A DNA stretch of 64,000 nucleotides, from NCBI GenBank assembly GCA_050084515.1, contig CM114271.1, forward strand, positions 10,664,001 to 10,728,000, written 5' to 3'. Positions 22,226 through 50,135 of this stretch are shown here, piece by piece. The translations under genes and the position numbers were made by a program. The notes under the pieces are model-generated. The model was not told where the DNA came from. It saw nothing but the letters and a program-made list of their open reading frames with translations, and searched no databases. Numbering within the stretch: the stretch's first letter is position 1; the number at the start of each line of letters is the position of its first letter. The DNA comes from Blasia pusilla (taxonomy: Eukaryota).

Positions 22226-22289
22226 TGAGATTCCTCGCGTACTTCTTCCTGAAGCTTCTGATCCGCCTCCAGCACCGCAACTCTCCCGT

Positions 22290-23810
22290 GGCTTGGCTCC
22301 ATTGAGACGCCAAGTCGATGTTCGTTTGCTGCTGATCAATCAGAAGTTTACCCTTCTTTGTATTCTCCAGCATCACGCTCTTGAGTCACGCTTGGAGAAG
22401 GTCGATCTTCTCTTGCAACTTCGCAGCGTGGAGCGAAGACTGTTGTAACTGCGCATAGAGTTGATTTGCTCCAATCTCTATGTCGATTGCTAGACTTTCC
22501 CATTGCCGTGCATTTTGAGATTCATATCTGGCTTCGACTAGTTTGCCCTCTGCTATGCAGAGAGATTGCTGCAACTCGTTGATTTCCTTCAGCTGAGTAC
22601 GGGTTTGTCTTTCCATGGACTCCCGAAGCGTTCTTTGCAGTTGTGTCTCCACGGTTTTGTGCTATATCTTTGTGAGGACGGCCAGATAGTCCTGTGCAAG
22701 AGCGTGGTCAGATAACTTACCAATTTTCTTTACTTCTTGCAAAACTGGTTCGGCAATTTCTAAGAACGAGGTCAAGTGCCTCAAGATCGTTTTCACCGGT
22801 TGCACAGCAAAACTATCCCTTGTGCTCGAAGGAACTACCACCGGCTCCACTATGATTGCAACGAGTGTTTCAGCCGCTTCTTCTTCTTCTTCTTGCGAAT
22901 CCAGCCTGACCCTCTTAGGTCTTGGCAATTCGGGAGAATGCGAGGGAGGGCGGGACGAAGATCCTTCCGCTGTTCGTCCCTTGGTTTTTGGGATACTTTG
23001 AGGTGTTGCTACTACCTCTCTGGTGCCCGAAGAAAATGCTTTGGCCGTCCTCGGCTTACTTACTGTTGTTACAGCGACCCACTTCGCTTCTTCCTCAAGT
23101 GTGATCTCTTCCACGTGTAGATACAAGCGAATCAAGAAGGGAGAATTTTTTTTCTCTCGGAGTCAATGCTCCCACTAATTCAATCACATGGGCGTGTACA
23201 AGCACGGAAAAATCGACTCCGGGTTCTTTGGAATGCAAGTGCATGTTCCAAAGAGTGTAACACTACTTTACAAGCTTGTTACTCGATCATGTAATATGTC
23301 CTACCGGGATTGAACAAGATTTTATACAACTTACAAAACTGTGCAAACAAGGGAGGGCTTACCATTTGAGGATTGTTTCCATTTCTTCCAAGGCGCTCTA
23401 CTATCACGCATCCCAATTCTTTGAGCTCTTCGGGTGTCACAATCAAGTTCTTCTTCCGGAGCTGCGGGTAAGACATATGCCATGCGCCATAGGTCGACGG
23501 ACCAATTTTTGGGTTGTGCCCTATGTTTGTACCCCCTTCTTATGAGTTCATTCACTCTGGAACTCGAATGCAATTCCATGAGCAAGGCCACCAAAGATTA
23601 CAACAAATCTGCGCCAAAGAACTGGCACAAAGATCGCTCTTCCAGTGCTTTGCGGAGCTCGCTTGAAATGCCTAGGGACGGGTACACCCCGTACTTCATG
23701 AGAGCCATGGACGCACCTCGAGCCATCCCTTCTTGCTTCCGTCGGGGTGTGCGAGACTTTATGATTGCTCTCTTTGGTATGCTCTTGGCGGTTGCTCTGC
23801 CTCTAGGCAT
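22290..23810 (-). pseudogene. Additional ORF downstream of Gypsy 2 pol, same orientation, with a C-terminal coiled coil
   Basis: Collinear fragments 23598-23810, 23331-23594, 23279-23476, 22662-23135 and 22386-22652 (PKNWSVDLWRMAY...ILFNPGR...SPFLIRLY...; heptad-rich end). Confidence 0.6.
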
Positions 23811-27250: not shown

Positions 27251-29213
27251 TAGCACACCTCCTATCATTTTCTAGAAGAAAACTAGGGTTTTTACCTATT
27301 TTTCTTTGTTTCTATTAACAGAAAAATTTGCCGGGGGCTGTGCATCCCCGCGTCATCTTGGCATACTAGAGGCTGCGCCCTTGGACCCCCGCGACGCATC
27401 AGGATGCCCCGCACCCTGATGCAATATAGGGTTAGATAATCCTAGTACCGCTACTCTGTAAGCCACCTACGTCATATTAGTATGACTCCTTTGACGTCTA
27501 AGTCGGAACCATCAATCTAGGCTTCTCTTCATACAAGGGGGTCGATCAGATTAATGGTGCTCAAAGGAGTGGATGTTGAGAATCCAACAATATTTCACAT
27601 GATTACGATCAAAGGCCGTCACGTCACCTTTCAGAATAACCTTGCTTGCTCAAAAAATCTCGGCTGTCTTCTTCTGAGCCGGGTTACTTCGTGAAGACGA
27701 AGACTCCTTCGTCTTCACACTTGCAGCCTTCTTGGTCTTGGACCGTGTCTCCACCACAAAGACTTCGTTGAGGATGTCTTCAGGCTAGTCTGAGGACTCT
27801 TCATTGATCTTCCTTGAAGATCCCTCTTCTTTGATAGTCACCTTCTTGATCTCCTTTGGGGACGTGACATCTTCTACTTGCAATAGCTGCACATTAGAGG
27901 CTGGTATTCTGGCAAGAGAGAGTAAGAGAGGAGAGGAAGAGAGGAGAGTCTCTCTTCAAAAAAAAAAGGGAGAATCCGCCTCCTCTCTTCTAAATTTTCA
28001 TTAGTTTCTTTATAAGTTTTTCTCTTTGAAATGTTGAAAAACTTTAGAAGAGAGTCACAAGTGAACCAGATTGGGTCATAAACTAACCTCGCTTTTCCAG
28101 GCTTCAATCCTAAACTAGACACACCAAGACCTCTTAAGCTGTGGTCTATATATATAACTAACATCACTCTATATGGTAGCCTAAGACTTTCACTACTGAC
28201 AGATGGGATTTATTTTCTCCTACGGCAATCTTGGAGATTGACAAAGATTATAGCAAATTTGGTGAGTTTGGTAGAAAGTTTTGAAAAGTTTGTTTAAACA
28301 CATGTCTAAGGTAAAGAAAGCGACCCTTAAGGCCTACATGGAAGGACTACGAGGAAAATAAAGGCAATCAACCTTTCATCCTCTTGGAATCCGACAAGTT
28401 GATAGACATAAGAAGTCCAGAAACGCTAGTGACGAAACAAGTAGAGAGAATGAAATGAAGGTAAGACATCATCCTTCCATGCAACCTTATCACAATCCAA
28501 TAGGTTGTCATGTTGATTGCTTCCATTTTCCTCTAAGTCCTTCCTTGTAGACCTCTCTTCTCTCTTCCTCTCTTCATGCAACTTGTCAGATTCTAACAAG
28601 TTGCATGATAGACGAAGGTTGAATCTAAGAAGAACGCCAAGACCGAAGCCTCCCAACTTGAGGCATGCCAACCTGTGAGAATGCGATAGGTTTCAAAAAA
28701 TAACATCTCGGTGAGGAATGGTTTGAAGGAAATGGGGGAACAAGGTGAAGGTGCAGAAGCCTGCCAGAATGCCTAAAAGGATTCTGGTAGCACATGAAAA
28801 GAAAATTCAGTGAAGTAGACAGCTTGTCGGAATCCAACCGGGTGGAGGACGTTAAACTAGGAAAATGCAGCAGCCAATCAATGTGACGTGCAACATGTCA
28901 GAATCTGACAGGTTGCCTAACTGGATCATAGAGAAAGAGATTTGAAAAAAATGCGAGCGTCTCGGAGGCGGTAAATCTTACAACCTATCGGAATTCGACA
29001 GGTTGCAAGCATGGTCTTTGGTTTGCAACCCAGATTAATCGGACGGGTTGCTCAATGAAGACCATCCAGCACACAAGAATCGCAACCCAAACACACAAGC
29101 ACCACTACTTAGAAGACACTTCAAGAAAGTTAATATCTTGAAAAAAATGGAAGTCCTTTATTACATCTGAGGGAAACTCAGGAATTTATATTTGCTCACT
29201 CAATCCAAAAACT

Positions 29214-32200
29214 CTAGTCTATGATTTCTTCAGCCTCGTCATCTACAAATTTACTCCTAACTCTCATCGTTTCCTGTACAAAATGAATGTCTTGGGATAC
29301 TAGTGGCTCATCTGACCGATTGTAGATGGGGATTGAGAATGTAGGGGAAGTTGATAACCTTGCTCCCCCCACCTAGGTGCACCATATTGGTCCCATGTGT
29401 GATTTGAAGAGTCCCAACGCCTTCCCCAGAAAAAAATCTTGTATGTTCTGCAAGGTGACACCCATCCACGATCAATATGTACTCCGCCGCTTGAAACCAC
29501 CAAATCCCTACTCCAAAATGCTTGAATCAATTGAACCCGATAAATCCATTCAACTCACTCGTCATCATCCGAGAGCTCTTCCAAAACAAGTGTCAGGCTT
29601 GCCCTCCCAATTTTTGGAATGACAAGCAGGGAAGATAGCATCACTACCAATGGATCTGCTGTTGGAGCAGTTGCCTTTGGAGGCGAGTTGTAGACTCCCA
29701 CCAGCCTTTTGTAATCAGCCTTTGAATCCTTGCAAAGGTTGAAAAGTTCCGTTCTTCCTTCAATGAAGAGAATATTCTTGCCACTCTGCCATGCACCTCT
29801 AATACTCGCCCCCGATAAACCTACCAAGTCCAAGACCAAATCACCCGGCCTTGAGCATAGCTTAATGAGGGTGTGCATCAGGGTAGGTGACTTCTCTATT
29901 TCTCCAAGTAGAGGCGTGCCTTTGATCATAAAGAGTCACGAGGGGGGATTGTAAAGGCTATCGAATGTGACCCCATTCGAGCATGGATCAACTGGATCCG
30001 GTATCTGAAACACCTAAAACATGTGCTCCGGTCTCACAAAACAGTATACATAGGAGTGCTCCATCTATCCACAAGGCAGGGGCAACACGATGTTAGCTTT
30101 AAGGTGGAACAAGCCTACAAACGGGTTCCTCTACAACTTCCTAAAAATCACGTGTGCCACTCGTCGGATCCTAACGGGTTGCACTGGTTGCTTTTTTTCC
30201 TTATCCAAGCATCTACCTGAGAAGCAACCTGTCAGAACCCGATGGGTTGCTCATAAACAAAGTAAGTTTTCTTGTAGCTCTACAACATCGTCAAAATGCC
30301 CCCGTGCAACCCATAGGCTTCCGACAAGTTTCCCTCCTTGATTTTTTCTTTATCCAAACATCTAGCTGAGAAGCAACCCGTCGGGTTTCGACGGGTTGCT
30401 TGTGAACAAAGTCAAAATTCTAGTAGCTCTACAACTTTGTCAAAAAGCTCCCATGCAACCCGTCGGATCCCGACGGGTTGCTTTTTTCCTGATGAGAGTT
30501 CTAGCTGAGAAGCAACCCGTCGGAACCCGATGGGTTGCTCATCAGCAAAGTCACAAGCCTAGATGGATTGTCCCATGCATAGTCCATGGGACATACCCAT
30601 TTTGGAGAAGTTTTTGCCCAAGCACCGTCAACTTCTCGATTGCAGCTCTCGACTCCTGAGTCAAAAAACTTTGCAATTCATCAAGCAGGGAAGTCGGGTG
30701 GAGTAGAATAGTGATCCTGCTCGTAGAATCCCTATGCCTACCTAATGATGAAGGATTGTATTCCACATCCTTACATAATCCTGCGACAGATCCCAACGCC
30801 TCCCGCTTTTGCTTCTCGCGAGTTTGTTGCCTGCTTGTTGGTGTGTCAATTACTTCAGACTTCATAGGAGTTTTTTTGTTGGGCTCCTGTGATACCCACA
30901 ATTTTTTACTTTTAGAAATTTACACATTTTGATTCAAGGAATACAGATTCTATGAAGTGAAGATTGTACATATAAGACTGTTTTAGATATTATGTTTGTG
31001 AAATTGGAAGAATGAGTTATATTGAAATAGATCACGAGCTCCTAGGACAAGGCAGAGAGGTGGAAAATCAAGGATTTGCCTTAGAGGAGATGGAAATGTG
31101 GTAACGAAGTCTAAAGACTAAGAGCGAAGCTTGGAAAAGACAACGAAGCCTTATTAAGAACCTGTTTATGAAGTGCTTCGCTCTTGAACAAAGCTTGATG
31201 AAGAAGAAGAGGAAGCAGTTCTTCGCTCTTTAGCAAAGCACGAAGAACGAAGCACCTGGAACAAGAGCGAAGAATGCAGTGCTTCGTCCTCAGGAAGAGC
31301 TTCATCCTCAAGGGAAGAAGAAGAAGTCCAGACTTAGCAGCGAAGCCAAGCTAAGACTCGAAGTGATTTGAAGCGGCACACCGTTAGAGTAGTTAGGCTA
31401 GGAAGAGGCGTGACTTTTTGGACCAGATAGGAAGTTAGGATAGTTACACCCAGCGGATTCATAGCGATCATAGGAAAAGATAAGAGAACCGTAGATTAAG
31501 GTAGTTACAAACTCTCAATAGACACTAGATTCGTAAGAGACGCTTCAGATCTTTGGACCTACTACTGCCTCGGAAGATATTTAAGAAGCATGAAAGTAGC
31601 TATCATCATCATTCTTTCACAAAGTCCATATGCTATAGGAATGGTCCAAGCAAGGGAGTAGTACCCTCTCGAGCTTGTATAACACTTTGAAGCTTTCTCG
31701 ATCTTGATGAAGTAGTAAAGCACTCATTTCTTCATTCTGATGTGCAATGCATATTCTGAGAATTCTGATTGGGTCTGCAGAGTGAAGAGTGAATAAGGAG
31801 AACACTTCCATCATTAGAATAATCAACGCGGAGTTGTAAGAAATCTGTTCGACAGAGAGTAGCCTACCTAGATGGATTGAGTTCCGAAAGTAGGAGAAGT
31901 CTGCTTCTTGTTGAGGTCTCTGTGAGGTTCTTTGATGTTGAGTGAAAATCTAGCTGAGCGTGATTTCAATTCCACTAGAGAGAATCGAGGAAAGAAATCT
32001 TGGTACTAATAGAGAGAAGAATACACTGATGAATGATTTAATCCAAAATGTACACACTTAACTACAACTATTGCAAGATAAACGTCATTTTCAACTCTCT
32101 TTTCACATAATCGTGATCCTCTTGGGGATCGAACTCATAAAATTATTGTAAAAAGATCAATTATTAAACTTCTTGTACATTACAGCTCCCTTGTCCGCCC

Positions 32201-33424
32201 CTCTCATCTAGAAGATTTTGCCTTTGAATGCCTCGACCCCTTCGCCGTGGCTTTCAAGCTCGCAATCGATTTATCCTTGGCAATCACTACCTTGGAGACC
32301 AACTCAACTGTCTCAATGGCTTGTTCCTCCGCATCTCCTTCAAAATATTCTCTAATCTTGACGAAGTTTGGGATGTCGTCCGTTCCAGCCACGACTGCAT
32401 CATACACAATTCGCAAGTTCTTGTCAGTTATTTCTTTGGAGTCGTTGAAGTCCAACCAGATTGGACAATTCAACACTTCCCACTCGGACATATCCTACCC
32501 CACCTCCATGTCGTACATGGAGAATCCTTCTCCATCAGCATGCAGCCCACAACTTGCATGTTGATGGGTATTTATGCCAGTTCCCTGCATTCACACTATA
32601 GATCAGGTATCTATATACCATGCGCTAGGCAACTCTTTGCCGGGATGTCTCGGCCGCTTGTTCTTGAAGATCCTGCTTGTTCTTAGCAAAATCCCGCTTT
32701 CTGGCGTCGAGATCCGCCTCAGGGAGGATGTGATTCTTGAACATAGTTTGGAAGCCTGGGTTTTTTCCGGCTTACCCCAGATGTCATCCAACCACAACTC
32801 GTAATCCTCAACAGCCTCTAGATTGGCCTCCTCTAGAATTGGCTCAAACTTTTTGAGCTCCGCTTGAAGACTATGGATGATCTCCTTCCCAAGCAGACGC
32901 AATACGTCCCAAAAAGACCATTCTTTCAGCCAATGATAGATGGCAGGGTCTGATACCCCCGGAGGATGATGTGCCACCCATTTTTAAGCCTCAATCCCCT
33001 TGAGACTAATTTTCATCAATCAAATCTGCCTAAATTTGGATATTCCTAAAAGTGCAAACCTATGAACACAGTCTAATGAGTCCTTTTCCCCCAATTCGAC
33101 CCTGTGGGTCTTCGTCCCTCTTCCTCTGGCATTTAATGATCGCCTTACTTCCTTGTAGAAGTCCTGGCCGAGATCTAGGTTGAGTATGGCAATGTACCAC
33201 TGCATCTTGCTCACAATGTACAATGGTGGCTACTGACACAGCATCTTGAATAAACTTTGCTCGCTCCGATTCTGAAACATTTTCCCTCCACTCCAACTCT
33301 AGTGCGGCACTTTTCTTGGCTGCCTGAATTTTTGACCAACATAGAATCATGACGGCTGCATCTTGGAAGATGTATGTATTTGACCAAGTCTTCTTCTTGA
33401 TCTGTGCACCCTTCGCGAGCATCT
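29214..33424 (-). pseudogene. Copy A cargo gene, 3' part (middle region plus MTase-like motifs X/I/II)
   Basis: EKSPTLMHTLIKLCSRPGDLVLDLVGLSGASIRGAWQSGKNILFIE (ORF 29555-29929); homologous to B 34435-37950; interrupted by the solo LTR; the motif-IV segment is deleted. Confidence 0.75.
30888..32184. mobile_element. Solo LTR (1297 bp) with 5-bp TSD GCTCC
   Basis: TGTGAT...ATTACA termini; GCTCC at 30883-30887 and 32185-32189; the flanks rejoin into copy A coding sequence. Confidence 0.88.
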
Positions 33425-35589
33425 GGGGGCTGGTATTCTGACAGGAGAGAGTAAGAGAGGAGAGGAAGAGAGGAAGAGAGGAGAGTCTCTCTTCAAAAAA
33501 GAAGGCCAAATCCGCCTCCTCTCTTCAAAACTTTTTGACATATTTGAAATTTTTGTTTGCTTTAAAATTCAGGAAATCTTTAGGAGAGAGTATTTAGTGG
33601 TCCACATTTGGCCCTAAAAAAACCTCCTCTTTCCTGGGGGCGAGAAAAAAGGAGACATCATAAGACCACCCTAAACATTTTTCCATCACTCTCCATGTGA
33701 GCCTAAGTTTCTTAACATTCCCTGTCTCGGTCAACAAAAAGCAGTGCCCTTGGTATTTTTGTTGGAGGACCACCCGGATGGGTACCTCTCTTTTTGCAAG
33801 GATTGTTGCGTGCATCATGGCCTCCCCTAAATTTCCCCATAACCAACTTTCTGTCGGTTATGAATGGTGTCTGCTCAAGACCAACTTTTTGAAATATGAA
33901 CAAATCAGATCCTTAGGGTGAGAAACCGAGAAGCTGCACCCCTCCCAACCCGTAAGAAAGCTCACCATAAGAAAGGAAAGATTTTTAGAAGTGATTTTCT
34001 TCCACCCTGCACCCACGACGATCTAACGGGTTGGGAATCCGAAATGGCAATCCGACATGTAGTAGGAATCCTGCACATCTTAGACAAGAAAAGAAGCCTA
34101 CAACTGGTTGGACGAATGAAGGGGAACGAGCCAAAAGTCAAGAAGCCCGCCACAATGCGCCAGAAGTTGGTCTCACCGGGATAGAGTCCGATCACTCAAG
34201 CACTCAACCTGTCGGAATCCGACAGGTTGCCTGGAAATGGTTAAAAAAGTGCAGTGGGCAAAAAGCAAAAAGTCGGAATCATACGGGTTGCAGAATTGTA
34301 ATTCTGAGTAGCTACAAGAACACAATCCACAAGTCTAAAAACATATTCCAGCAAACTTTTACAAGCACCATTATGGGTTGAAAAAATCTCGTCCTTTATT
34401 ACCTCTGAAGGAACCTCGGAAATGTACATTTCACCTAGTCTATGATTTCTTCAGCCTCGTCATCTACAAATTTACTCCTAACTCTCCTCAGTGACAGTAC
34501 CAAAGGAATGTCCTGAGATTCAAGTGGCTCCTCTGGCCGATTGTAGACGGGGATCGAAAATGTTGGCGAATTCGAGAGCCTTGGCCCCCCCCTAGGTACA
34601 CCATAAGGGTCCCATGTAACCTGTCTGGAGTCCCACCGCCTTCCTCGGCAGTATACCTTGTACGCTCTGCAATGTGACACCCATCCAGTATCAATATCTG
34701 CTCCGTCCCCGGTAATACCATTATGGAAACCGCAGAGGTAGAAGGAATCCAACACGTCTGAGAGAAGAAAAGAAGCCTACGCCTGCCTTTACGAGTTGAG
34801 GGGAAGGTGCCAAGGGAAGAAGCCCGCCAGACTGCCTCTTAAGTTGGACCAACAGGGAAAGGGTCCGATCAGGCAACCTGTCGGAATCAGACAGGTTGCC
34901 TGGAGGTGGTAAAAAGGGAGCAGTGGTCAAAAAGCGAAAAGTTGCGAGGAGAAATCGACGGGTTGCACTGGTCATAAAGTGAAAGTTGCAAGCAGGAGAA
35001 ATCCGACCGGTTGCAAAGTAGAAGTCCGTGGAGTACATAGACGATCACATTCGAAAAGAAAAATGATCAGCAAACATTTACAAGCACCATCGATCGAAAA
35101 AATCTTCTGCTTTATATCATCCGAAAAAAGCTGGGAATATGAATACGCCCCAACAAGCCTTTCGTATTCTGCCTTTGCCTCCTTGCAAAGGTCAAGCGAT
35201 TCTGCCTTCCTCGAGGCGAGAGAATGTTCTGCCACTCTGCCAGCGCCTTTGATACTTGCCCTGAAAGTCCCACTAAGTCGAACACCAAGTCACCCGGCCT
35301 TGAGCAGAGCTCGATGAGCGTTTGCATCAGGGCTGGCGACTTTTCCCTTCCTCCCAGAAGTGGGGTACTGTCTTGCATGTAAATTCCCGGGGGAGAATAG
35401 TACAAACTATCTAAACTGTACCCATCTGAGCATGGATCCACAGGATCCTGGATCTTGAACACCGGAAATTGTGCTCGGGCGAACGAAGCGAAGAGCGTAG
35501 GAGTGGTCCATCTCAGTAAATCAAAGACGTTGGAAACAATGTCGAAACTAAAGAAGTCGCCTTGAGAACATTTTCAATAATCGACTTTG

Positions 35590-35970
35590 GATCAACTGCC
35601 GGAGTCGGACGGGTTGTTTTGTCGGACCAACCCGCCGGAACCCGGCGGGTTGCGATTGCTTTTGGATTTTCCCAGTTGATTTTGGTTTTGGATGCAACCC
35701 GTCGGAAGGCGACGGGTTGCTTCGGCCTAGAGCAGCCCATGCTCGCTTTGAGAGCAACCGTCGCTATCACGGGTTGCATCCACAAAACCAAAATCAAGCG
35801 AAAACACTAAAAAGCAATTGCAACCCGTCGGGTTCCGACGGGCTGCGTACACCGCGGTTTTCCCTGTGTATGTGGGAAAGATGCAACCCGTCGGAAACCG
35901 ACAGGTTGCTCTCAGCCGAGCATGGGCTGCTCTAAGCCTGCAACCCGTCGCCTTCCGACGGGTTGCTCAC
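35590..35970. repeat. 27-bp palindrome array in cargo intron 3 (copy B)
   Basis: About seven GCAACCCGTCG..CGACGGGTTGC variants. Confidence 0.9.
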
Positions 35971-38079
35971 GAACAAAAAAAAACCCAGATTGATTCTCAT
36001 TCTACACATCATTATAAGATAATTGAAATTATTGTACAGGAATTGAGCCTTACCCGAATCTGATTTGTCGCGGATCAGAGTGGGTACTCGTTTTTGATGA
36101 TCCACCATTGTGCCGTCCTCCACTTTAGCGACCTCTTGACGCACTGGAGGTTGAAGAGCTCGTCCTCGCTCCCTCCAATCAACACCAAGAAGCAGCCCCC
36201 CTGTCACTCGGATAGGCGCGCCGCAAAGGAGAACAAAAGTGCAATCTGGTCATAAGTGAGCGGCACATTCCACTCAAGTACCTCGTCCGACGGATTCTCG
36301 CCCCAAAGTCGCAACCCTGAGGGCAGATCGGCGATCAAGAGATCCACCGCAACCTCTTCAACCACTCCATTCACCGTCCAGGCAGCGTGCCCATTTCGTT
36401 GGAGCTTCCGTCCCAGCGTTGTCAATTTTTCGATGGCTGGTGTCGACGCTTGAGAACTGAAGCTCTTCAGCTCATCCAGTAATGGAGTGAACTGAAGGAG
36501 GACGCTTGTCCGGGTCATTGTTTGTCTGTGTCTTCCCAGGGCGATGGGTGTATTCTCCTTGGGACAACCGGGCACCTCTCGCTTCGCTTCTCCCTAGCCT
36601 GGGGGACGGCTTGTCGGGGTTTCTATGACCTCGGATTTTGGTGGCGTTTTCTTCGCCGAGGACCTGGTCCGACCCTCTCTCCCCGCTCGTCCGGACGATT
36701 CCGCCTCGGCCTCAAATCTTGACCTCTCTTTGGGAAGATTCGGCCCTCAATTGTTCCCTCCCCTCGCCTTGCCTTTGAGACCATTTGTGGATTTGCCTTT
36801 GGTGTCCAGGACCTTGAAGCCAACTCAAGCTGTCTCGTGGGCTGCTCTTCGCATCTCCTCCGAAGAAGTCTTGACCGGGCGAAAGTGGGGATGTCGTCTT
36901 GTCGAGGCCCTTTGCATCATGAAGCACTCGTAAGTCCTTATCCGTGATGTCTTCAGGGTCGTTGAAGTCGAGCCAAATGGGGCAATTCTCCACCTCCCAA
37001 TCGGACATGTGCTGCCCCATCTCCATGTCGTACATGGAGAATGTCTCTGCATCCGGCGGCGAAGCCCACAACTTCAAGGCTACCGGTAATTTTCCCCACG
37101 TACCTGGATTCTTACACTGGACAAGGTACCTGAAGACCATCCGTTGGGCAACTTTTAATCAAACAGAATCGGCCGTCTACTCCTGTAGATCTCGCTTCTT
37201 CTTTGCTTGATCCCGTTTGTTCCCCTCTACTTCTTTGTCAAGCTCTGCCTGAGGGAGGACGCAAACCTTGAACATGGTCTTGAATCCTGGGTTTTTTGTT
37301 GGCTTGTCCCGGATGTCGTCGAGCCAAACCTCGTAATCTCCAGAACTTTCAAGGTTTGCTTCCAGCGGAATGGGCTCCAATCTTCTGAGCTCCGCTTGCA
37401 AACCGTCCAGCACAGACTTCCCGATTACCCGCAACGCGTCCCAGAACGACCATTCGCGTAGCCAATGCGAGATCACTGGATCAGACACACCCGGAGGATG
37501 GTGTGCCGCCCTCTTCTGGGCCTCTGAGCCCTCGAGACTGATTTTCATCCGTCGTATCCTCCTGAACTCGCTTATCCCGGACAACGCAAACCGATGCACG
37601 CGATCCAGCGACACTTTCTCCCCAATCCGACAATGCGGATCTTCATCCCTCTTCCGCTAGCGCTTGATAATTGCCTTCAGCTCCTTGTAGAACTCCGGAC
37701 CAAGTTCGGGGTTGAGAATGCTGATGTATCGCTGCATCATGCTCGCCTTGTATTTCCTTGCAGCAGATACTGCAGCTTGGATGAATTTAGCGCTCAGACG
37801 AGATACCTTCTCCCTCCGCTCTAGCTCGGTCGGCGCTTTTCTTTGACTGAATCTTCGACCAGCAAAGGATGGTTACGGCTGCATCTTGAGAAATAAACTT
37901 GTTTGCCCAAGTTTTCTTCTTGATCTGAGCACCCTTTGCCAACATCTGATTGACGAGGACATCGCCCAAGAACCCCCTGTACTCTCCCGGGTGCGTCGTA
38001 AGCACCTTCCTCACCCGATCGCAATCCTGGATCCAGTGGTGGGTGACATTCCCCTCCGATACAATCCTGCACATCCAAA

Positions 38080-38630
38080 CTCAACCCGTCAGGAAATTAC
38101 ATGGGTTTCTGCAATCCTTCGGACTCCAACGGGTCGTCACAGCTCAAGGTCGGATTCTAGCAACGAGCTTAATGATGCAACCCGTCGGAGTCCGACGGAT
38201 TGCATTCAGATTTGCTAATGCCTGGTAAGCAAACCGTCAGAGTCCGACGGGTTGCTCGATAGGCCGCCTTGTGAGGGTGTTCTTTTAAGAATGCAACCCG
38301 TCGGACTCCGACGAGTTGCTCGAGTGACTGCAGGTTTAGAAGGTTTTTTCCCCAAAGCAACCCGTCGGAGTCCGACGGGTTGCTTGCCTCGCCGCTATTT
38401 TTCCCCATATCAACCCGTCGGACTCCGACGGTTTGCTTTGGGCCAAAAACTAGTTAAATCTATGTTCAATCAAACAAGTCATCGGAGTCCGACGAGTTGC
38501 AATCTTAAAAAAAGATCCAAAAAAGCGTGCAGTCGAGCAACCCGTCGGAGTCCGACGAGTTGCTTTCGGCAAAAACAAACCTAACCCATTCATCAATCGA
38601 GCAACTCGTCGGAGTCCGACGAGTTGCGAA
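38080..38630. repeat. 27-bp palindrome array in cargo intron 2 (copy B)
   Basis: Perfect GCAACCCGTCGGAGTCCGACGGGTTGC at 38357-38383 plus about nine variants at roughly 50-65-bp spacing. Confidence 0.92.
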
Positions 38631-40090
38631 AGTGTTAAAGATACTCACGTGTTCATGGCATGCATTGCCATCTCCACCGTCGCCATGTGATGAGGGTATG
38701 GATGAAGGACCACTGCCTTCACGTACAAATGTGCCTCCAATGAGTTGGGCCGCTCCTCCGAAAACTTGGTCCACGCCATGAACCTGTGATTCCCATCCCA
38801 GATGAAGAAATGCAGATTCCTCATCCAGCTGAATTCCGTGCCCTCAACTTGCCTTCTGAAGTCCTGGTCTCGCATCCTCCAGAATGTGTCGAGCTTTTCC
38901 AAGTCCTCCTCGGTAACTAGAGCTTGGGTTCCATGCTCATCGTAAGGCTGAACATAGAAGGGAGGAAAGTTGTCGACGTAGGATGCTGTCGCCGCCGATT
39001 GTTTTAGCTTCGCAATGTCCTCGTCGGACTGGATTTCACGGACGTATTCCATTGTCCGCAATCGGCAGAGTGGAATCCTCGGGGCGTTGTGGCCCTCCAT
39101 GAGTGCCATCAACTTTACCACCTGTCAAAACCGGGACAAGAGGAATAAGCTACACATGAAATCCCAATGAATTGCGATTCACATAATTAAAAAAACCCAG
39201 AACCTCTCTTACCCGCTCGAAAATGGGGTCGGTTTCTTGACCAGCTAACTTGTCTGAGACAGAGGCTGGAAAATCGACTGGAAACTCGTCGATCCGATAG
39301 AGGTCGATGTCCTCCGCCGGGCTTGGAGTCGAGAATGACCGCTCTCCGGCTTCTTCGGCCATGTCCACCATCTCCACGTTGGCGGTCCTCATGACCTCGT
39401 CGTCATCGATTTCAACTTCTGTAGTTTCCACTATGTTGATTGTGTCCCGGACTTCGTGGGGACATTTCCCATCTCAACACTGGCGGTTGGACGGGCTGGG
39501 CTATCGTCAATGGCTATCGCTTTTTCCCTCCTCGCTTTAGCCAATTCTGCCCTCCTCACCGACGCGTCCAGGCGCTTCTTTTCTCTCTTTTCGTCGGCGA
39601 TCCTTTTCTTCAACGCCTGCGACGTCTCGGCCTTTGCGTTCTGTTTATCTAGCGCCTCTTGAACACGTCTCGCAAGAAGCACTTGGTTGTGCATCTCCGC
39701 TTCCCTTTCCCGCTCCTCGATTTCCTGCTGCCTAATTTCATTCGCCGAACGAGGCCCAGGAGAAGCGGATGCAGGAGTCCTAATGGACTTGGGAGTGAAG
39801 CTCCCTGACTTGTTGGCTTGTGTTTTTTTCCTCGTCATTTTTGCCGGAAATGCCTCCACCTATGTCCACGACAAATTCCTTGATCAGTCGCCTTGCTGAT
39901 GTCGAGATGGGAGCTCGAATCGTCCCGCTATGGCTCGGTCGAACCGTCTCGCTCTCGTTCCCTCCTATCGACTCGCGATGTGTCGCTGTGTGAAATGCCC
40001 CTTCGTATCTGATCACCTGCTGTGCGGGAGAGTGAGGAGTGAGGAATGAAGATTGCGAAATGAGAAACCGGAAATGAGCGATTTCTGCCC

Positions 40091-40098
40091 TATTTATA
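40091..40098 (-). promoter_or_regulatory. Putative TATA box of the cargo gene
   Basis: TATAAATA on the minus strand followed by a pyrimidine-rich tract, about 250 bp upstream of ATG 39838. Confidence 0.5.
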
Positions 40099-40184
40099 CT
40101 TTTCTAGCCGTTGGGCTGACCGTTGGGTCCCGTCGTCCTTTCGACGGCGACGTGCCGGATGTTACGGAATTCCGGACGTGAAAA

Positions 40185-40845
40185 ATGGCAACTCGTCAAA
40201 GTCCGACAGGTTGCATGGCTCCGCCATCCTGTGTCTGTCGCCACGTGCGTGAGCAACCCGTCGGAGACCGACGGGTTGAGCGGCTCCGTCGTCTTCGGAA
40301 AAGAACACGAGGTTCCCGCGCAACCCGTCGGAGACCGACATGTTGCGCGCCTCCGCCATCCTGGGTACGTCGCCACGTGCGCGAGCAACCTGTCGGAGAC
40401 CGACGGGTTGAGCGCCTCCGTCATCTTCGGAAAACAACGCGAACAACCCGCGCAACCCGTCGGAGCCCGACATGTTGCGCGCCTCCGTCGTGTTTGGGAC
40501 GGGAACGGGACGTATCTTGGGAAATCTGTCGGAGACCGTTAGGTTGCACGCTTCCCTCATCAAGGGTTAGGAACTCCGTGCAAGTCGTCGGAGTCTGGCT
40601 GGCTGCACCAGAAGGCGAGGCCCTTGCGCAACCCGTTGGAGGGCGACGGGTTGCACGCCTCGCCGTCTTTGGGCTAAAAGGCGAGGCACCCGCGGAACTC
40701 GTCGGGAATAGACGGTTTGCACGCCTCCGGCATCTTCGGGCAAGAAGGATCGGTATCCGAGCAACTCGTCGGAGAGCGACGGGTTGCTCGCTTTGACAAT
40801 GTTTAGCAGAAGCGTGCAACCCGTCCGATGCCGACGGGTTGCGTG
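40185..40845. repeat. 27-bp palindrome array in the divergent promoter region (copy B)
   Basis: About eleven variants at roughly 60-65-bp spacing between the two TATA boxes. Confidence 0.9.
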
Positions 40846-41041
40846 CCGGCTAGCTTCGGGTAATTTTCGAGTTACCAGGACTCAGCGGGTTCCAAGTGTG
40901 ATGTGCAACCCTCGCTTCCCAAATCGGTAACATATTGCAACAAAATTGAATGTGTTCTGGTGGATCCATTGTGTCGAACAATGTCACCCACCGAATTCAT
41001 CTTGTCAAGTAAAAATCATCAGAGTATCATTTCCTATTCAC

Positions 41042-41254: not shown

Positions 41255-42269
41255 TGTCGCGACCCTCATAACCAAACAACACCAAATATGCGCCAAGCGA
41301 AACATCAGAACTCAAAGGAACTCACGCCGCGAGGTTTGCGCTTTGGAGAGGCGTTTGGAAGAGTCTCTTGGAAAAGTCTAAGAGACGAAACGTGGAACAG
41401 AGTTGTGCGTTTCATGCGTTAGTGGTCGCGACCAGGAAACCTAGACCAAATGCGAGCCGAGACTTGAGATGAGTTGAGTCTTGGAGGTTGGTTGCCAAAG
41501 AGGTGAGAACCAGTTTGGAACACGGCTAGCGTTTGGGAGAATCTGACTGTGTTTAGGACCATAACGTTGAGCTCCGAGATGCGTTCGGGACAAATAAGGG
41601 CGCGTTGGAAAGCTGATCTTGAGACGCTTCCAACGCACCAAAGATCTCAGCAAACGCATAAGTACAGGCTGAGATATTGGCCGAAAACGATTCAGAGAGC
41701 AATCGGGTTGAGGGCCAGTGAGGGGCAGGTGTCTTTCCTAAATGTAGGGGGCCCCGGAGATCCCCAGAAGTACTAGTAAGGGGAGTACCTTCTCTGAGAT
41801 GTCTCGGGAAACGAAACCCCACTTTGGGCGCCAAACGGCGTTTGAGGCACGGGATGAAACGGGAGTTTGGCGGAAACCCAAACCCAAACCTGATCCAAGG
41901 GAGTGGACTTTTACGCCACACTTGGATTCCAACCCAATTCGCCGTGCGAGTCTTGGTGAGGAACTCATTGGATGTTCATCGGACGATTGGAACCGCTAAG
42001 CGCGAAACGCCGTTTGAGTTCTGAACCGACGAGAAAGTCTGTCCCAAGTCTTTCGAGACTTGCCCGTGTTGGAAACCGCGAAACTAGGAAGGTTGAGCTT
42101 GAAGAGAGAGTCCGAGACGAGAACTCGGAAAGTAATCCCGCTGATTGATCCAAGACCCGACTAACCGAAGTGCGTGTTTGGATGCAGATCAGCGTTGAGA
42201 GCGTGACCTCATCGAACGCACGCTTCCATAACAAACAAGATTAACGTTCAACGAGTAGGCGCCACGACA
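41255..42269 (+). repeat. 5' LTR of the chromovirus
   Basis: Near-identical to 47599-48612. Confidence 0.95.
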
Positions 42270-42686
42270 CGTGGTATCAGAGCAATTCCTTGATGAGTGT
42301 GAACTTGGGGTCGTTGAAGATCTGGACATTTGGGGAGAACTCAAGGTAGCCGGAAAACCGCGACGCCGAGGAGGAACGCAAGAGGCGAGGAGGAGATCTG
42401 AGACAAGGTGACGACTCGCAAATGGCGACCAAGGGCGAAGAACCGAGGAAACCGCGAGTCAAAGCAAAGAAGCCAAGAGACGAATCAATGACGGACGAGA
42501 GCCGGAGGTGGAATTTGCGACTCCCGAAGTGCGAGTCCAGACATAAGGATGTTCCAACCGAAAATCTTTCCGGGACCTTGGTCCAAACTTAAACGATCCG
42601 GCCTTTTATACCCAAATGATGGGATTGATGAAGGTGATGGCGGACCAGATGGTGAACAGAGCAAGGTGATCTCGGAATTCAAGTCA

Positions 42687-45600
42687 AATGGAGCCTCTAG
42701 TTACGGCAAGAAGCTTTGTAAGACTAATTTGCCAACGCCATTCACAGAATGGGGCGTTCTCGGAAAGTGAGCGAGTTTCTACAGTAACTCGAACTCTATT
42801 TCAAGCGCAAAAGGCGGATGAACAAGACAAGGTGATCAGAGCGGTCACGTTTCGAAGGATCACGCTCTCCATTGGTGGACGGCTCACCGGAAAGAACATC
42901 TAGGTCGTGGGAAAACGTTGAGTTGGGAAGATTTCAAGGAGTTGATTGGGAACCGATTCACTCCGGAATATCGAGTACCGCGATGGCATGGAGGTGGTGA
43001 GGTTGCGCCGAGTGGATCACTTGGCGCTTATGTGCGAGAGTTTAGTGCGCTCATGAGTGCACTTTCCACGGACGAACATACTAAAAGGTGATCTTCCTAA
43101 GTGGGCTCAAACCGAGTGCCGAGAAGGCTCTCTTTCGTATGCCTCACATCCCAGAGACGTGCGCGGACCTCTTGAGACTAGCCGAGCGGATTGGGGACGA
43201 TGAAGTCCAACACCCGAAACCCTTTGAGACAAAAAGTTTTTCTAAGTTCTGAGAAGAATAAAGGGACATCCAAGAGGGTTTGGAATGGGGGTGGTGAGCG
43301 ACCACGGAGGGTCTCTGCCGTAAACGAGTGGAACTCAACGCGAAGCCGAAGGGGCCGCCATTTACGAAGTCAACGAATGCCAAAGTGATTTGTTATAATT
43401 GTGGCGAACCCGGGCATATGGCTAAGGAATGTGTGAGGCCCAAGGTTAGTAAACCAAGTATGATTGCGTTTGCCGCTAAGCATTTATCGGAGGGAGATCT
43501 AGATACATCTCTACAAGTCACCAAGAGAACGCCCAATTTGGTTTACCTAGGATCCAAGATTGCTAATCGCGATGTGATGTTGCTCGTTGATACAGGTGCT
43601 TTGCACTCATTCTTGAGTCTGAGAATTGTAAAAACGTTGGGATTGCCAACCACCAAAGCGGATGAACCCATTAGGGTAGGATTCGCGGGAGGAAAATCCC
43701 ACCAGACATCAGATCTGGTTTTAGGCTAGTTGTGAGATGGAGTATTTGAGTTGAAATAAATTTCTGATTTGCGAGATGGACGGTTTTGACGGAGTCTTGG
43801 GAACACGTTCTTGGATGCGTATGAGGTGGAAGGCGAGGCGGAGACCTTTGAGGTTAAGCGTCTTGGTTAACGGCAAAGGGACGGACATCAGATTGGTTCG
43901 TGAGGTGCCTAGAAAGACGGAGTTGGTGAACGCCATCACGAGGACGAGTTTGGCGAGTTAGAGGAAGGATTCCTTTGCTTGATGAGACAGTAGAGGATGA
44001 TGCAAGCGCAAGATGCAGAGATCAGAACTCAGCTTCAAGGAGATCCTGAAACACTCAAGAGAGTTGTGAAAGAATTTGAAGATGTGTTGACTAAGGAGCT
44101 TCCGATCGAGTTGCCACCACATAGGGCGGTTGATCATAAGATTGAGGTGATACGGGATCTCAACCACCTTCAAAGGCACCATATAGGTTGAATCAAGAGG
44201 AACTTGCTGAGTTGAAGAAAGCAGTTGGGTGAACTCCTAGAGAGGGGTTACATCCGAATGAGCAAGTCACCTTATGGGGCGCCCGTCCTCTTTGTCAAGA
44301 AGAAGGATGGGAAGTTGAGACTCTGTGTGTTGTTTATCGGGCGCTGAATAAAGTGACGGTAAGGAATAACTATCCTCTACCGAGGATGGATGACCTCTTT
44401 GATCGATTGTCGGGTGCCAAGTATTTCAGCCGGATTGACCTGAAATCAGGATATTATCAGATTCGCATTGCCGAAGTGGATGTAGAGAAGGCGCTGTGAG
44501 GGACGAGATACGGTTCGTTCGAGTTTGTAGTAATGCCTTTCGGTCTTTGTAATGCGCCTCCGCGTTTACCACTTTGATGAACTCCATCTTTCACAAGAGA
44601 GCGGATGAGTTTGTGATCATCTATATAGATGACATACTCATCTATTCGAAAACACTAGAGGAGCACGCTCGACATTTGAAGACGGTGTTTGAGAAACTTA
44701 GGGGCGAACAAGTCCGTATGCGAATGCGGATAAGAGTGAGTTCGGTTTGCGAAGATCAAGTTCTTGGGGCATGTGGTCGATGCGGATGGAGTGAGTCTAG
44801 ACATGGAAAAGGTGAGCGCGATTGCGAATGGGAACCGCCTTCCACGGTGAAGGGGATGAGAAGGTTCGCTGAGTCGCCTGTCGATTTTACGGACATACGT
44901 GAAGAATTTTTCGGGCATAGTGAAACCTCTCACGGATTGGACCGCAAAGTTTTCCAATACTACATGGACCGAGGAAGTGGATAAAGCGTTCAATCGAGTC
45001 AAAGAGATCCTGGCGCAGAACCGATTTAAAGCGCGGAGTTTGAACAACCGTTCGAGGTGCACACGGATGCTAGTGATTTCGCGATTGCGGGAATGTTGGT
45101 GCAAAAAGGAGACAGAGCATACGATATCAAGAAGATGACCGACACCGAAAGGAGATGGCCTACTCATGAGAAAGAGTTGTTTGCGGTGGTTCATTGCTTG
45201 AGGAAGTGGCGTCACTATTTGGGACTTCACAGGACTCGAGTATTCACCGATAACATATCGCTCAAGTATTTTGAGACTCAGGATCGCGTGACTCCAAAAC
45301 AACTTCGGTGGCATGATACCTTGGCGTTGATGAATGTGGAGCTAATCCACAAGCCGGGGAAAGACAATGTCATTCCAGATGCGTTAAGTCGCAGGGATGA
45401 ACACATGCCATGGACGACACAAGTGTTGAGAGCAATGTTCCCTAATGAAACAGACCTGGAAAGAAGGATTCGTGAAGGATACATGAAGGATGAGCAAGCG
45501 AGGGAGTACCTTGGGAAGTTAAAGCGGGGCGAGAAGGTGGCCAATCTGAGTTTGAGACACGGCTTGCTAAGGTTTAAGCAATGCAGGATCTATGTAGGCC

Positions 45601-46908
45601 AAGGCAAGCTACGGACCAAGGTGTTTGTGGAATGTCATGATGGACCTTTGGCGGGACACAAAGGGGAGAAATCCACTCTTCTTTGTTTTGTCTAAGAGGT
45701 TCTTCGGCCCAACATGAAGGAAGATGTTGCTCAATATGTGAAAACATGCGTGACTGCCAGCGAACGCGTGTCTTATGCGAAGAAACAAGGTTTACTTCAT
45801 CCTTTGCCAATCCCGGAGGGACCCTTGCAAAGCATTAGCATGGATTTCATTACGAGTCTTCCAGAATCTGAAGGATACAACGCTATACTTGTGATAGTTG
45901 ATCGGTTTAGCAAGTTGGGGAGGTTTGTGCCGACGAGAGAGAGTGCGATGGCCTCGCGACTTCCGACTATTCCTGGATGGTTGGTGGCGGCGTCGACGGA
46001 TTTCCTAGGAGCATTGTGTCCGATCGGGATCCGAAGTTTACCGGTGCCTTTTGGTAACATCTATTCGGGAGGTTCGGACCAAACTCAGCTTTAGTACGGC
46101 CTTCCATCCTCAAACGGATGGGCAACGGAAAAAAGTAAACTTCGGTCGTAAACCAATACTTACGGAACTACGTGAGTGCGGACCAAAGAGATTGGGCCAA
46201 GTGGTTAAGTATGGCTGAGTATTGTTACAACTCGACTAAGCATTCTCAGAATCGGAGAATCTCCGTTTCTTCGGCGTATCAAAGAGAACCGAAGGGCCTC
46301 TTGACTTAGCTCTTTCGAAGGGCAATACATCGACACACACTCGTCAAGCAACGGCGGAATGTTTGTTAGTGGAAATGCAGAACGCGAGAGCGGCGAGAGA
46401 AAGTCTCGCCAAGGCTCAACTAAGGTACGTAAAGCATGCTAACAAAAGTCGGTGCCATGTGAGTTTCAAGTTGGGAACAAGTGTGGTTGAGTGTTAAGAA
46501 TCTCACTCTTCCGAAAGAATTGTTATGCAAAATTGTCACCAAGTATCTTTGGACCAGTATGTGATCAAGGCAAGGCCGTTTGAGGATGTGTACACGTTGG
46601 AGCTGCCAAACGAGTTCAAGATTCACCCGACTTTCCATGTGTCATTATTGAAGAAGTATCTTCAAGACAATGTGCGTCCGGAGCGAAGGAGGATGTTGAG
46701 ACCACAACCGGTCATCAGAAATGAGGAACCAGAGTTCGAGGTTGAGACAATTCTGCGTTCCAGACGTAGGGCCACCAAGTACGAGTACTTGGTCAAGTGG
46801 AAAGACTATCATGTGAAAGAGGCGACTTGGATTGCGGAGGCGGATCTAGAACATGCGCAAGAAGCATTGCGTGACTTCAGATGGATGCAAGCAAAGCACG
46901 TGCGTTAG
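42687..46908 (+). pseudogene. Chromovirus gag-pol (knuckle, AP, RT, RH, IN, chromodomain), many small frameshifts
   Basis: CYNCGEPGHMAKEC, LVDTGA, IYIDDILIYS, HTDASDFA, ISMDFITSLP, chromodomain EFEVETILRSRR..EYLVKWKDY..ATW (46525-46908). Confidence 0.92.
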
Positions 46909-47598
46909 TACATGGTGAAGCAATGGACATAACTTGTGATCGGAAATCTTGGGCCGATATTCCGTTGTAACTAGAAAGGTTTAGTTGTTGCAATAAAGAA
47001 GACATGGATTCGGAGATTCGATGCTTGTATTGTAATTTTGAGTTTGGATTGTGCAAGGCAATGAGTAGTTCTTCATATGCTTAGGATGTAAGTCAAGGAG
47101 ACCAAACAATGAGTATTTGAGGTGAGAGCTTGTATTCAGATAAGGCATCTAGATCAGGACCAAGTGTTGAAGTACTAGCATTTGGGCTCGCCCTAACGTC
47201 GGCGGGGCAGATGAGTCTGTCTTGGGGTTTGTGGTGATCTCATTCATGTTTCATGACTGAACTTAGTGACGCGCCTAGGTGGAATACAGGTGACCCAAAA
47301 ATAGTACGAGTTGGCTAGGTAGACAGGCCGTTGTTTACAAATAGTGAGTGAAGTGTTAGGTTGCAGACTTAGTGAGCTTATTTTGATAGTTAGATTAGTT
47401 TGGCGAGTAACTAGTCTAGGCTCATCGAAAGCGAAGCTAATAAGTCTAAGTCGCAAGCGACAAACCTAAGACTTAAGCCAAAAAGAGGAATTGCGGGTTA
47501 GCTACGTAACGCGATTACGTGTTAAGGGTCGGCTTCCCGAACTTAACATCAATAAGGTTTGCGTTGATGAGGACATCAACCTTCTAAGGGAGGGTGAG

Positions 47599-48612
47599 TG
47601 TCGCGACCCTCATAACCAAACAACACCAAATACGCGCCAAGCGAAACATCAGAACTCAAAGGAACTCACGCCGCGAGGTTTGCGCTTTGAGAGGCGTTTG
47701 GAAGAGTCTCTGAAAAGTCTAAGAGACTAAACGTGGGAACGAGTTGTGCGTTTCATGTGTTAGTGGTCGCGACCAGGAAACCTAGACCAAATGCGAGCGA
47801 GACTTGAGATGAGTTGAGTCTTGGAGGTTGGTTGCCAAAGAGGTGAGAACGATTTGGAACACGGCTAGCGTTTGGGAGAATCTGACTGTGTTTAGGACCA
47901 TAACGTTGAGCTCCGAGATGCGTTCGGGACAAATAAGGGCGCGTTGGAAAGCTGATCTTGAGACGCTTCCAACGCACCAAAGATCTCAGCAAACGCATAA
48001 GTACAGGCTGAGATATTGGCCGAAAACGATTCAGAGAGCAATCGGGTTGAGGGCCAGTGGAGGGCCAGGTGTCTTTCCCTAAATGTAGGGGCCCCGGAGA
48101 TCCCCAGAAGTACTAGTAAGGGGAGTACCTTCTCTGAGATGTCTCGGGAAACGAAACCCCACTTTGGGCGCCAAACGGCGTTTGAGGCACGGATGAAACG
48201 GGAGTTTGGCGCGAAACCCAAACCCAAACCTGATCCAAGGGAGTGGACTTTTACGCCACACTTGGATTCCAACCGAGATTCACGTGCGAGTCTTGGTGAG
48301 GAACTCATTGGATGTTCATCGGACGATTGGAACCGCTTTGGAAAAACGCCCGTTTGAGTTCTGAACCGACGAGAAAGTCTCATCCCAAGTCTTTCGAGAC
48401 TTGCCCGTGTTGGAAACCGCGAAACTAGGAAGGTTGAGCTTGAAGAGAGAGTCCGAGAGGCGAGAACTCGGAAAGTAATCCCGCTGATTGATCCAAGACC
48501 CGACTAACCGAAGTGCGTGTTTGGATGCAGATCAGCGTTGAGAGCGTGACCTACTGAACGCACGCTTCCGCAACAAACAAGATTAACGTTCAACGAGAGT
48601 AGGCGCACGACA
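47599..48612 (+). repeat. 3' LTR of the chromovirus
   Basis: Near-identical to 41255-42269; preceded by the PPT. Confidence 0.95.
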
Positions 48613-49789: not shown

Positions 49790-50135
49790 AAGCAAGTTGT
49801 CGGATGCGACGGGTTGCCCGAGTGTGCAACCCAACGGAAACCGACGGGTTGCCCGAGTGTGCAACCCGACGGAAACTGACGGGTTGCCCAAGGGTGCAAC
49901 CCGACGGAAACCGACGGGTTGCATCCAGATGTTTGGTGTCGTCCCGAGTGTGCAACCCGTCGGGACCCGACGGGTCACAGAGTTGTTCATGGGATGCCTC
50001 GGCCTTGCAACCCGTCGGGTTCCGACGGGTTGCACTAGGTGGGTTTAAGGTTACAACACGTCGTGACCCGACGGGTCGCAGAGTCGTTCATGGGATGCCT
50101 CGGGCCTGCAACCCGTCTGGTTCTGACAGGTTGCT
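49790..50135. repeat. 27-bp palindrome array in the transposase intron (copy B)
   Basis: About eight variants, some in 35-bp tandem units. Confidence 0.9.

Follow-up and report, generated by a model that had tools for sequence, protein, structure and literature searches.

What does a prokaryote-type DNA methyltransferase domain do inside a eukaryotic mobile element? The question is raised by a 64,000-nucleotide stretch of the Blasia pusilla genome (GenBank assembly GCA_050084515.1, contig CM114271.1, positions 10,664,001 to 10,728,000 of the forward strand; hereafter the window, counted from its first letter), in which a first-pass annotation had described a beta-class amino-methyltransferase domain with altered catalytic motifs at 35112-36575. 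Bdelloid N4CMT is reportedly another prokaryote-type amino-methyltransferase residing in a eukaryotic genome. On balance, we lean towards the view that the locus is a degenerate copy of a repeat-borne accessory gene, whose C-terminal part would be a methyltransferase-derived, probably non-catalytic module for gripping DNA or for sensing S-adenosylmethionine (SAM).

The window contains three diverged copies of one repeat unit and one fragment, with pairwise nucleotide identities of 68-83%:

About 29142-33425, minus strand: copy A of the repeat unit.
About 34377-39859, minus strand: copy B, the repeat unit under study.
53457-53934, minus strand: copy C, a fragment consisting of the ParB-like open reading frame (ORF), 71% identical in amino acids to the ORF of copy B, with one stop.
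About 59320-62511, plus strand: copy D of the repeat unit.

All the motif strings quoted in the first-pass annotation were found, on the minus strand in copies A and B and on the plus strand in copy D. The methyltransferase-like gene is laid out in the three copies as follows:

36204-36593, minus strand: copy B, N-terminal half, a frame open over 129 amino acids, with the motif-IV-like VDLLIADLPSG at 36315-36347.
36054-36203, minus strand: copy B, rest of the same exon, with an in-frame TGA and then frameshifts; GGCFLVLIGG at 36171-36200.
35512-36053, no strand assigned: copy B, intron-like spacer, with 11 half-sites of a 25-bp palindrome at 35606-35965.
35145-35511, minus strand: copy B, C-terminal half, with the motif X-I string EKSP...DLVGLSG, EKSPALMQTLIELCSRPGDLVFDLVGLSG, at 35259-35345.
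30551-30919, minus strand: copy A, upstream part of the N-terminal half, with the motif-IV-like and CFLVL stretches deleted.
29555-29935, minus strand: copy A, C-terminal half, an intact frame of 126 amino acids with motifs X, I and II and an acidic tail.
60744-61259, plus strand: copy D, N-terminal half, an intact frame of 171 amino acids, with VDLLIANFPSG at 60993-61025 and LSDRGCFLVL at 61128-61157.
61623-62117, plus strand: copy D, C-terminal half, read in the frame of the N-terminal half and interrupted by stop codons at 61659 (TAG), 61728 (TGA) and 61878 (TAG).

Sequence comparison clearly points to the motif X-I-II half as a true relative of the PF01555 beta-class DNA methyltransferases, descended from bacterial or phage enzymes. 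A Pfam search matched PF01555 in copy A (19.6 bits, E=9.3e-4) and copy B (16.8 bits, E=6.9e-3), yet these single window copies lie below the gathering score of 26.7 bits. When the copy A exon was compared with 1.84 billion representative proteins, two matches were returned, P0001 and P0002. The former (E=4e-32, 23 stretches) was discarded as a low-complexity tandem repeat, and the latter (E=7.4e-4, 38% identity to the copy A exon) contains PF01555 at 26.5 bits (E=7.6e-6). A profile word-index search yielded 10 exon-sized relatives, half of which (5/10) have a precomputed PF01555 match. The outside relatives are spread over many contigs of large assemblies and are therefore multi-copy as well; the seven members of one 90% cluster, for example, lie on seven contigs between 135 kb and 1.09 Mb long, and the source of one member labels it 'DNA modification methylase'.

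Three window copies and 10 outside fragments make up a family alignment of 13 rows, eight of which match PF01555 at E<=0.01, with no other family matched. The profile of this family finds DpnA (5hek/5hfj) in the PDB at E=3.1e-6, and all six PDB matches of a smaller profile are beta-class DNA methyltransferases. Alignment by hhalign with three phage methyltransferases (VHML, phiKO2 and Javan253) gave a probability of 97.1% and E=5.5e-11 over 95 columns. Methyltransferase families account for 4/4 matches in PHROGs (best 2.7e-5), and tblastn of P0005 matched 353 phage records, with the methyltransferase of Vibrio phage VHML at the top (5e-5). A search for related loci returned none from metagenome contigs (two scans), viral contigs and prokaryote genomes, and a word-index search of longer proteins with exon 3 of copy B found nothing. 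The prokaryote or phage beta-class relationship proposed in the first-pass annotation holds for the motif X-I-II half, on which Pfam, PDB, PHROGs, hhalign and tblastn agree, whereas the N-terminal half stays at chance level.

The N-terminal half (DLPS/NFPS...CFLVL) probably supplies motifs IV-VIII of the same Rossmann-like fold in a strongly diverged form. In class I methyltransferases, motifs X-I-II make up only half of the Rossmann-like sheet, and such a piece should be unable to fold on its own. The motif-IV-like block is the best conserved part of the N-terminal half and lies about 35 residues ahead of the hydrophobic CFLVL strand; motifs IV and X are about 113-133 amino acids apart, versus about 126 in the DpnA-like Javan253 enzyme. 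All named neighbours found with a protein language model are methyltransferase families, at scores of 0.82-0.88, below 0.9 and at the level of leads. In ESMFold2, pairing the N-terminal half (residues 45-171) with the C-terminal half (residues 1-80) and SAM gave 0.51 versus 0.00 for the best of three controls, rated 'weak support': passes at or below 0.60 are wrong in the majority of cases unless the pairing was likely a priori, and the pairing was made without alignments, so that a pass may merely mirror likeness to solved methyltransferases. The runs agreed in at least 47% of contacts with a partner pLDDT (predicted local distance difference test) of at least 55, a mark that is reached by 51/78 solved complexes and 2/108 mismatched pairs. 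Of the beta-class order initially read here, with motifs IV-VIII followed by X-I-II, the position and spacing fit, while every sequence test of the N-terminal half came out at chance. The conserved string 'KLWASPPD' in the middle ORF 36712-37158 on the minus strand (36980-37010; in copy D 60207-60512), which has a superficial likeness to motif IV of the SPPY type, was also tried as motif IV and rejected, hhalign giving no placement there.

Motif IV of such enzymes has the consensus (D/N/S)-P-P-(Y/F/W), in which the aromatic residue stacks on the flipped base. It reads DLPS in copy B and NFPS in copy D, as first described; the site keeps D/N and one proline and is without the second proline and the aromatic residue, while DPPY is present in all three phage enzymes compared. 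The window family departs both from this consensus and from the F-x-G-x-G SAM loop of motif I: copies A and B have D-L-V-G-L-S-G-A-S there, and the outside relatives have D-L-S-A-S-T-G-A-S. Where FxGxG has its first glycine, A and B have Leu, the decayed copy D has Thr and the outside family has Ser; of the glycines the second alone is kept, together with an acidic residue. Motif X is comparable, with E-K-S against Q-K-S in DpnA and E-K-P in VHML and phiKO2. As the first-pass annotation had proposed, the deviations belong to the family and are not random decay: in the 13-row alignment, which covers a wider multi-copy eukaryotic family, D-L in place of the usual D-P is invariant, GAS is nearly invariant, and the first motif-I glycine is lost throughout. 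Since motif IV has neither the second proline nor the aromatic residue, and since Leu replaces the first glycine of the SAM loop, methyl transfer has probably been lost in this domain.

The copy at 35112-36593 is a pseudogene. Compared with copies A and D, it has single-base gaps near 35261, 35243, 35231 and 35205 and two extra bases at 36195-36196, and its likeness to the family stops at 35144, where the DNA reads have a loose end too. The EKSP...GLSG string quoted in the earlier annotation is full in copy A, which has the best-preserved C-terminal half in the window (EKSP...GLSGASIRGAWQSGKNILFIEG at 29804-29896 and onward), but is broken after GLSG by frameshifts in copy B. Copy D reads LVTLSE where A and B have LVGLSG and is further damaged at the exon end. 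The stops in the copies are C-to-T type changes. One codon is TGA in copies A (29728 region) and D (61728) and GGA in copy B; the TGA common to A and D either goes back to an older subfamily as a shared ancestral stop or arose in parallel.

Reads of the same organism, from one genomic Hi-C run and three RNA-seq runs, were mapped onto 27500-41000 at a likeness of at least 88%. Copy B is covered by DNA reads about 2000x (sum of both orientations), compared with 15-25x in the least-covered bins of the same interval in the Hi-C run, and the B-type subfamily is therefore very abundant. This bears out the earlier statement that the gene is carried by a high-copy repeat. Among the 12 indels listed out of 103, genomic reads have an extra base behind 35258 (1112/1471), 35242 (997/1578), 35228 (804/920) and 35208 (866/900), and lack two bases of copy B at 36200 (854/914). 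The reads thus depart from copy B exactly at its frame breaks; these lesions are therefore private, and most family members are in frame there.

Ratios of non-synonymous to synonymous substitution (dN/dS) were calculated from protein-guided, almost gap-free codon alignments. The N-terminal halves of copies B and D, 63% identical in amino acids, differ at 33, 21 and 74 first, second and third codon positions over 117 codons, with proportions of non-synonymous and synonymous differences of 0.22 and 0.81 (the latter saturated). For the C-terminal half, dN/dS is 0.28 (A-D), 0.23 (D-B) and 0.10 (A-B), and for the ParB-like ORF of copies B and C it is 0.06. The subfamilies diverged under purifying selection, with dN/dS of about 0.1-0.35. 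A ratio near 1 across the copies had been named beforehand as grounds for abandoning the methyltransferase reading; all values lie far below 1, and this objection fails. Neutral evolution of the copies, suggested by a rough estimate by eye, was ruled out by the strong third-position excess in the codon-based count.

The domain had been described as split by an intron. RNA depth drops to 0.03-0.10 in the spacer bin 35618-36068, compared with 3.6-7.9 in 35167-35617 and 2.4-3.5 in 36069-36519. DNA depth in the spacer falls only about two-fold, and RNA per unit of DNA depth is 30-150 times lower there than in the exon bins. A GTAAG donor-like site near 36053 and candidate AG acceptors near 35512 and 35450 are conserved among the copies; the exons align between copies and the spacer is not alignable. 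The depth drop supports the intron; splice-junction reads were not seen among the rows listed. Two consensus strings of loose RNA ends (near 38537 and 38600) were searched in the window as a splicing test, without a match.

Transcription of family members is weak and in the sense direction: the first mates of the reads map to the plus strand, which in most stranded libraries corresponds to RNA of the minus (sense) strand. Each run gave few RNA reads (319-471), almost none of them 99% alike to the window, which means that they stem from other copies.

Upstream of the methyltransferase-like part, the copy B unit comprises further ORFs and a palindrome array:

39431-39859, minus strand: N-terminal ORF, basic and coiled-coil-like, with an ATG at 39838 as the likely start of the unit.
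38645-39124, minus strand: ParB-like ORF, with the ParB/Srx-like IWDGNHRFMAW at 38771-38803.
38082-38626, no strand assigned: array of 25-bp palindromes, directly downstream of the ParB-like ORF.
36712-38080, minus strand: middle ORFs, conserved in copies A and D.

The half-site of the palindromes, CAACCCGTCGG, has 105 matches in the window versus 0.69 expected. Half-sites are mostly head-to-head, 14 bases apart, giving 25-bp palindromes (CAACCCGTCGG, 3 bases, CCGACGGGTTG). The arrays are confined to spacers and intergenic parts of the repeat copies; those at 38082-38626 and 40203-40841 flank the ParB-like ORF. The array at 38082-38626 is not depleted in RNA, and many of the reads there fit only partly and come from elsewhere. 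The further arrays are:

30239-30537, 35606-35965, 40203-40841, 49806-50119 and 52384-53416: palindrome arrays.
54975-55757, 58118-59288, 61345-61464 and 62615-63903: palindrome arrays.

Neighbours of the ParB-like ORF in a protein atlas, taken as leads, include ParB_N (11% of one cluster), DUF6551 (98%) and DUF3723 (31%). The ORF has no match in the PDB as a single sequence, in phage records, in PHROGs or in NCBIfam. A PDB match of the two-copy ParB-like profile to a phage portal (E=1.1) was set aside as unrelated, and an AlphaFold2 (AF2) model of the ORF was unusable (pLDDT 36.7). For the middle ORFs, no Pfam family was found, and PDB profile searches gave one chance match at E=1.5.

We then propose a model for the gene. 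It would be an accessory gene of a highly abundant repeat, most probably a large DNA transposon. The copy B unit would run on the minus strand from about 39838 to 35145 and would encode, in this order, a basic N-terminus, a ParB/Srx-like segment, a middle part without an assigned family, and a C-terminal domain derived from a beta-class methyltransferase (PF01555, of the DpnA/phage VHML type) and interrupted by the palindrome-rich intron. Without methyl transfer, this domain may serve as a module that grips DNA or senses SAM. It is tempting to speculate that the domain and the ParB-like segment together recognise the 25-bp palindrome arrays of the element itself, and that this recognition helps the element to persist or to escape silencing.

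Several observations weigh against this model. Every copy in the window is broken, none attains the PF01555 gathering score of 26.7 bits, and the copy D read-through has no Pfam match of any kind. The ParB assignment consists of the DGNHR motif, a Pfam match to DUF1015 at E=0.036 and language-model leads, and the listed rows held no splice-junction reads. The loss of methyl transfer is judged by motifs only; in annotated phage enzymes, too, the D-P-F and G-S-G positions vary (phiKO2 has D-F-F, and Javan253 has D-T-H-V-G-S-A-S-S), and at the first glycine the outside family has not Leu but the small residue Ser. The sole hhalign match of the N-terminal half, AVDLLIANFPS on YFDLAIVDPPY, covers 11 columns at a probability of 0.42% (E=0.14), and falls on motif IV. 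Smith-Waterman scores of the N-terminal halves of B and D against those of the three phage enzymes equal those of shuffled sequences (n=500; z -0.8 to 1.5). Pfam, the PDB (single sequence and profile), PHROGs, NCBIfam and phage tblastn gave no relevant match for this half, and AF2 on the copy D read-through (14-row alignment) returned an unusable mean pLDDT of 34.1. A word-index search of proteins of similar length with the copy D N-terminal half found nothing. Chance-level statistics of this kind and the missing AF2 fold speak for an alternative in which only motifs X-I-II derive from a methyltransferase and the DLPS/CFLVL half is unrelated, its likeness to motifs IV-VI being fortuitous. We regard this as rather unlikely, however, since an X-I-II piece alone should not fold, selection on the N-terminal half is equally strong, the one hhalign match coincides precisely with motif IV and has canonical distances to the following hydrophobic strand and to motif X, and the ESMFold2 pairing of the two halves exceeded its controls at the level of weak support. 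Still less probable, and in fact scarcely credible, is that no methyltransferase relationship exists and the motifs match by chance. Single copies do fall short of the Pfam gathering score, but profile, PDB, PHROGs, hhalign and tblastn searches agree on the family and on the region, which refutes chance for the C-terminal half.

A different possibility is that the domain is a divergent but active N6-adenine or N4-cytosine methyltransferase that marks the element's own DNA, for example the palindrome arrays, as an anti-silencing or self mark. Purifying selection acts on both halves, motif IV retains D/N and one proline, motif I retains its acidic residue and second glycine, the E-K-S of motif X matches the corresponding residues of DpnA, VHML and phiKO2, and the 'DPF' and 'GSG' positions are variable in annotated phage enzymes, all of which would fit an active enzyme. 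The authors of a red-algal study suggest in its accessible text that the related PAG2 methylase domain may be active (10.1101/2025.02.11.637652). We nevertheless consider activity unlikely here, because DLPS/NFPS is without a base-stacking aromatic residue and a second proline, Leu occupies the first FxGxG glycine in copies A and B, and the N-terminal half is too diverged for any methyltransferase profile. A working self-recognition system of prokaryotic design, in which the ParB-like domain loads on the palindromes and a fused beta-class methyltransferase writes N6-methyladenine (6mA) or N4-methylcytosine (4mC) there, appears to us distinctly doubtful. If it were true, a eukaryotic transposon would possess an epigenetic mark of its own for anti-silencing or copy-number sensing. 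The decay of all three window copies, with C-to-T stops typical of silenced repeats, could finally suggest that the repeat captured a functionless piece of a host or foreign gene and carries it along passively. We give this very little credence: dN/dS is 0.1-0.35, and synonymous sites are nearly saturated between subfamilies, exons are conserved next to a spacer that cannot be aligned, most genomic copies are in frame where copy B is broken, and the relatives in other assemblies are multi-copy too.

For comparison of the proposed repeat-borne gene with known systems, the literature on a land-plant or repeat-borne PF01555 family yielded only a preprint on the red alga Bostrychia, a study by Iyer et al. 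in 2016 and the work on MpDN4MT1. The accessible text of the preprint describes giant Plavaka transposons with the accessory genes PAG2 (PF01555 methylase plus SET) and PAG3 (ParB-like plus 2-oxoglutarate (2OG) oxygenase), with tandem inverted-repeat arrays adjoining PAG3; homologues of these genes occur on Mutator, Zisupton and Fanzor-encoding elements, and the copies are mostly degenerate and weakly transcribed (10.1101/2025.02.11.637652). The gene cassette of the window resembles PAG2/PAG3; this red-algal work, the closest precedent found, is a published description of a similar accessory cassette on transposons. Common to both, as far as that text goes, are a PF01555-type domain on a repeat-borne accessory gene, a ParB-like segment (a putative one in the window), inverted-repeat tandem arrays beside the ParB-like gene, low transcription and mostly degenerate copies. 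Unlike PAG2, the unit ORFs scanned against Pfam have no SET match, and unlike PAG3, the middle ORFs have no 2OG oxygenase match in Pfam and PDB profile searches. The ParB-like and methylase-like parts of the window lie on one strand, apparently in one unit, and the motifs are strongly altered; PAG2 was compared by its text description, in which motif states are not given. The kind of accessory gene is accordingly familiar from red-algal transposons, and the diverged version with altered motifs appears to be new.

Among characterised enzymes, the beta-class N6-adenine methyltransferases DpnA, VHML ORF17 and phiKO2 Gp52 align with the window domain in the motif X helix, the position of the motif I loop and the motif II strand, and the spacing from motif IV to motif X is like that of the compact DpnA-type enzyme. 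Relative to the DpnA/phage type, DPPY is changed to DLPS/NFPS and D-P-F-x-G-S-G to D-L-V-G-L-S-G, the N-terminal half is unrecognisable, and the domain appears intron-split and placed inside a long multi-domain eukaryotic protein. The accessible part of Iyer et al. (PMC4738411) lists the cases in which eukaryotes are known to have acquired such enzymes, and mentions methyltransferase domains of DIRS1 elements and METTL14 that are inactive. Like the window domain, these keep the fold under selection with disrupted catalytic and cofactor motifs, and the DIRS1 domain likewise belongs to a mobile-element protein. They come from other clades, however (PCIF1-derived and MT-A70, not PF01555), and inactivity of the window domain is judged indirectly, which makes the parallel a functional analogy. 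MpDN4MT1a/b of Marchantia, according to the accessible text, is a low-copy, sperm-expressed host gene with a canonical TSPPY (10.1101/2021.02.12.428880). It resembles the window domain in being a prokaryote-type amino-methyltransferase in a eukaryotic genome, whereas the window domain has neither SPPY nor DPPY and is borne by a repeat. A specific link to Marchantia DN4MT1, which the first-pass annotation had named as a known case, is not supported, as far as the motif described there goes: MpDN4MT1 keeps TSPPY and the window has DLPS/NFPS.

Transposons with DNA- or chromatin-modifying accessory genes of their own are rare, and the function of such genes has hardly been tested. The family described here could provide an experimental handle, being very abundant, still transcribed, and endowed with selected methyltransferase-derived and ParB-like parts and candidate binding sites in the same element. 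A dead domain would be a clear-cut instance of a eukaryotic mobile element turning a prokaryotic enzyme fold into a binding module; an active one would be a transposon-encoded writer of 6mA or 4mC. If the host lies outside the red algae, PAG-like cassettes would extend beyond the one lineage described so far.

The surroundings of the repeat copies contain other mobile sequences. A long terminal repeat (LTR) retrotransposon at 41255-48612 splits the upstream region of copy B; its LTRs of about 1 kb (41255-42269 and 47599-48612) are 96% alike and enclose gag-, protease-, reverse transcriptase- and integrase-like ORFs. A second, Ty3-like element lies at about 18100-22300. Adjoining the repeat copies is a divergently oriented set of ORFs at 48550-51748 on the plus strand, with an inverted counterpart at 57714-54205. 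These ORFs have cysteine-rich segments and a SWIM-like CxC...CxH pattern, with a weak Pfam SWIM match in ORF 50660-51748 (E=0.23), and the set may be the transposase or a DNA-binding gene of the element. No Plavaka or CACTA transposase was seen in the window, the weak SWIM-like zinc-finger ORF being the nearest lead. At 27500-27950, sense RNA depth is high (6-17x) at a DNA depth of about 800x, and the RNA reads share a consistent set of differences; another expressed repeat family therefore abuts copy A. A long (CTCACTCA / CTCT)-type microsatellite at 4950-5150 is read as 'SLTH' repeats in ORF 4770-5183.

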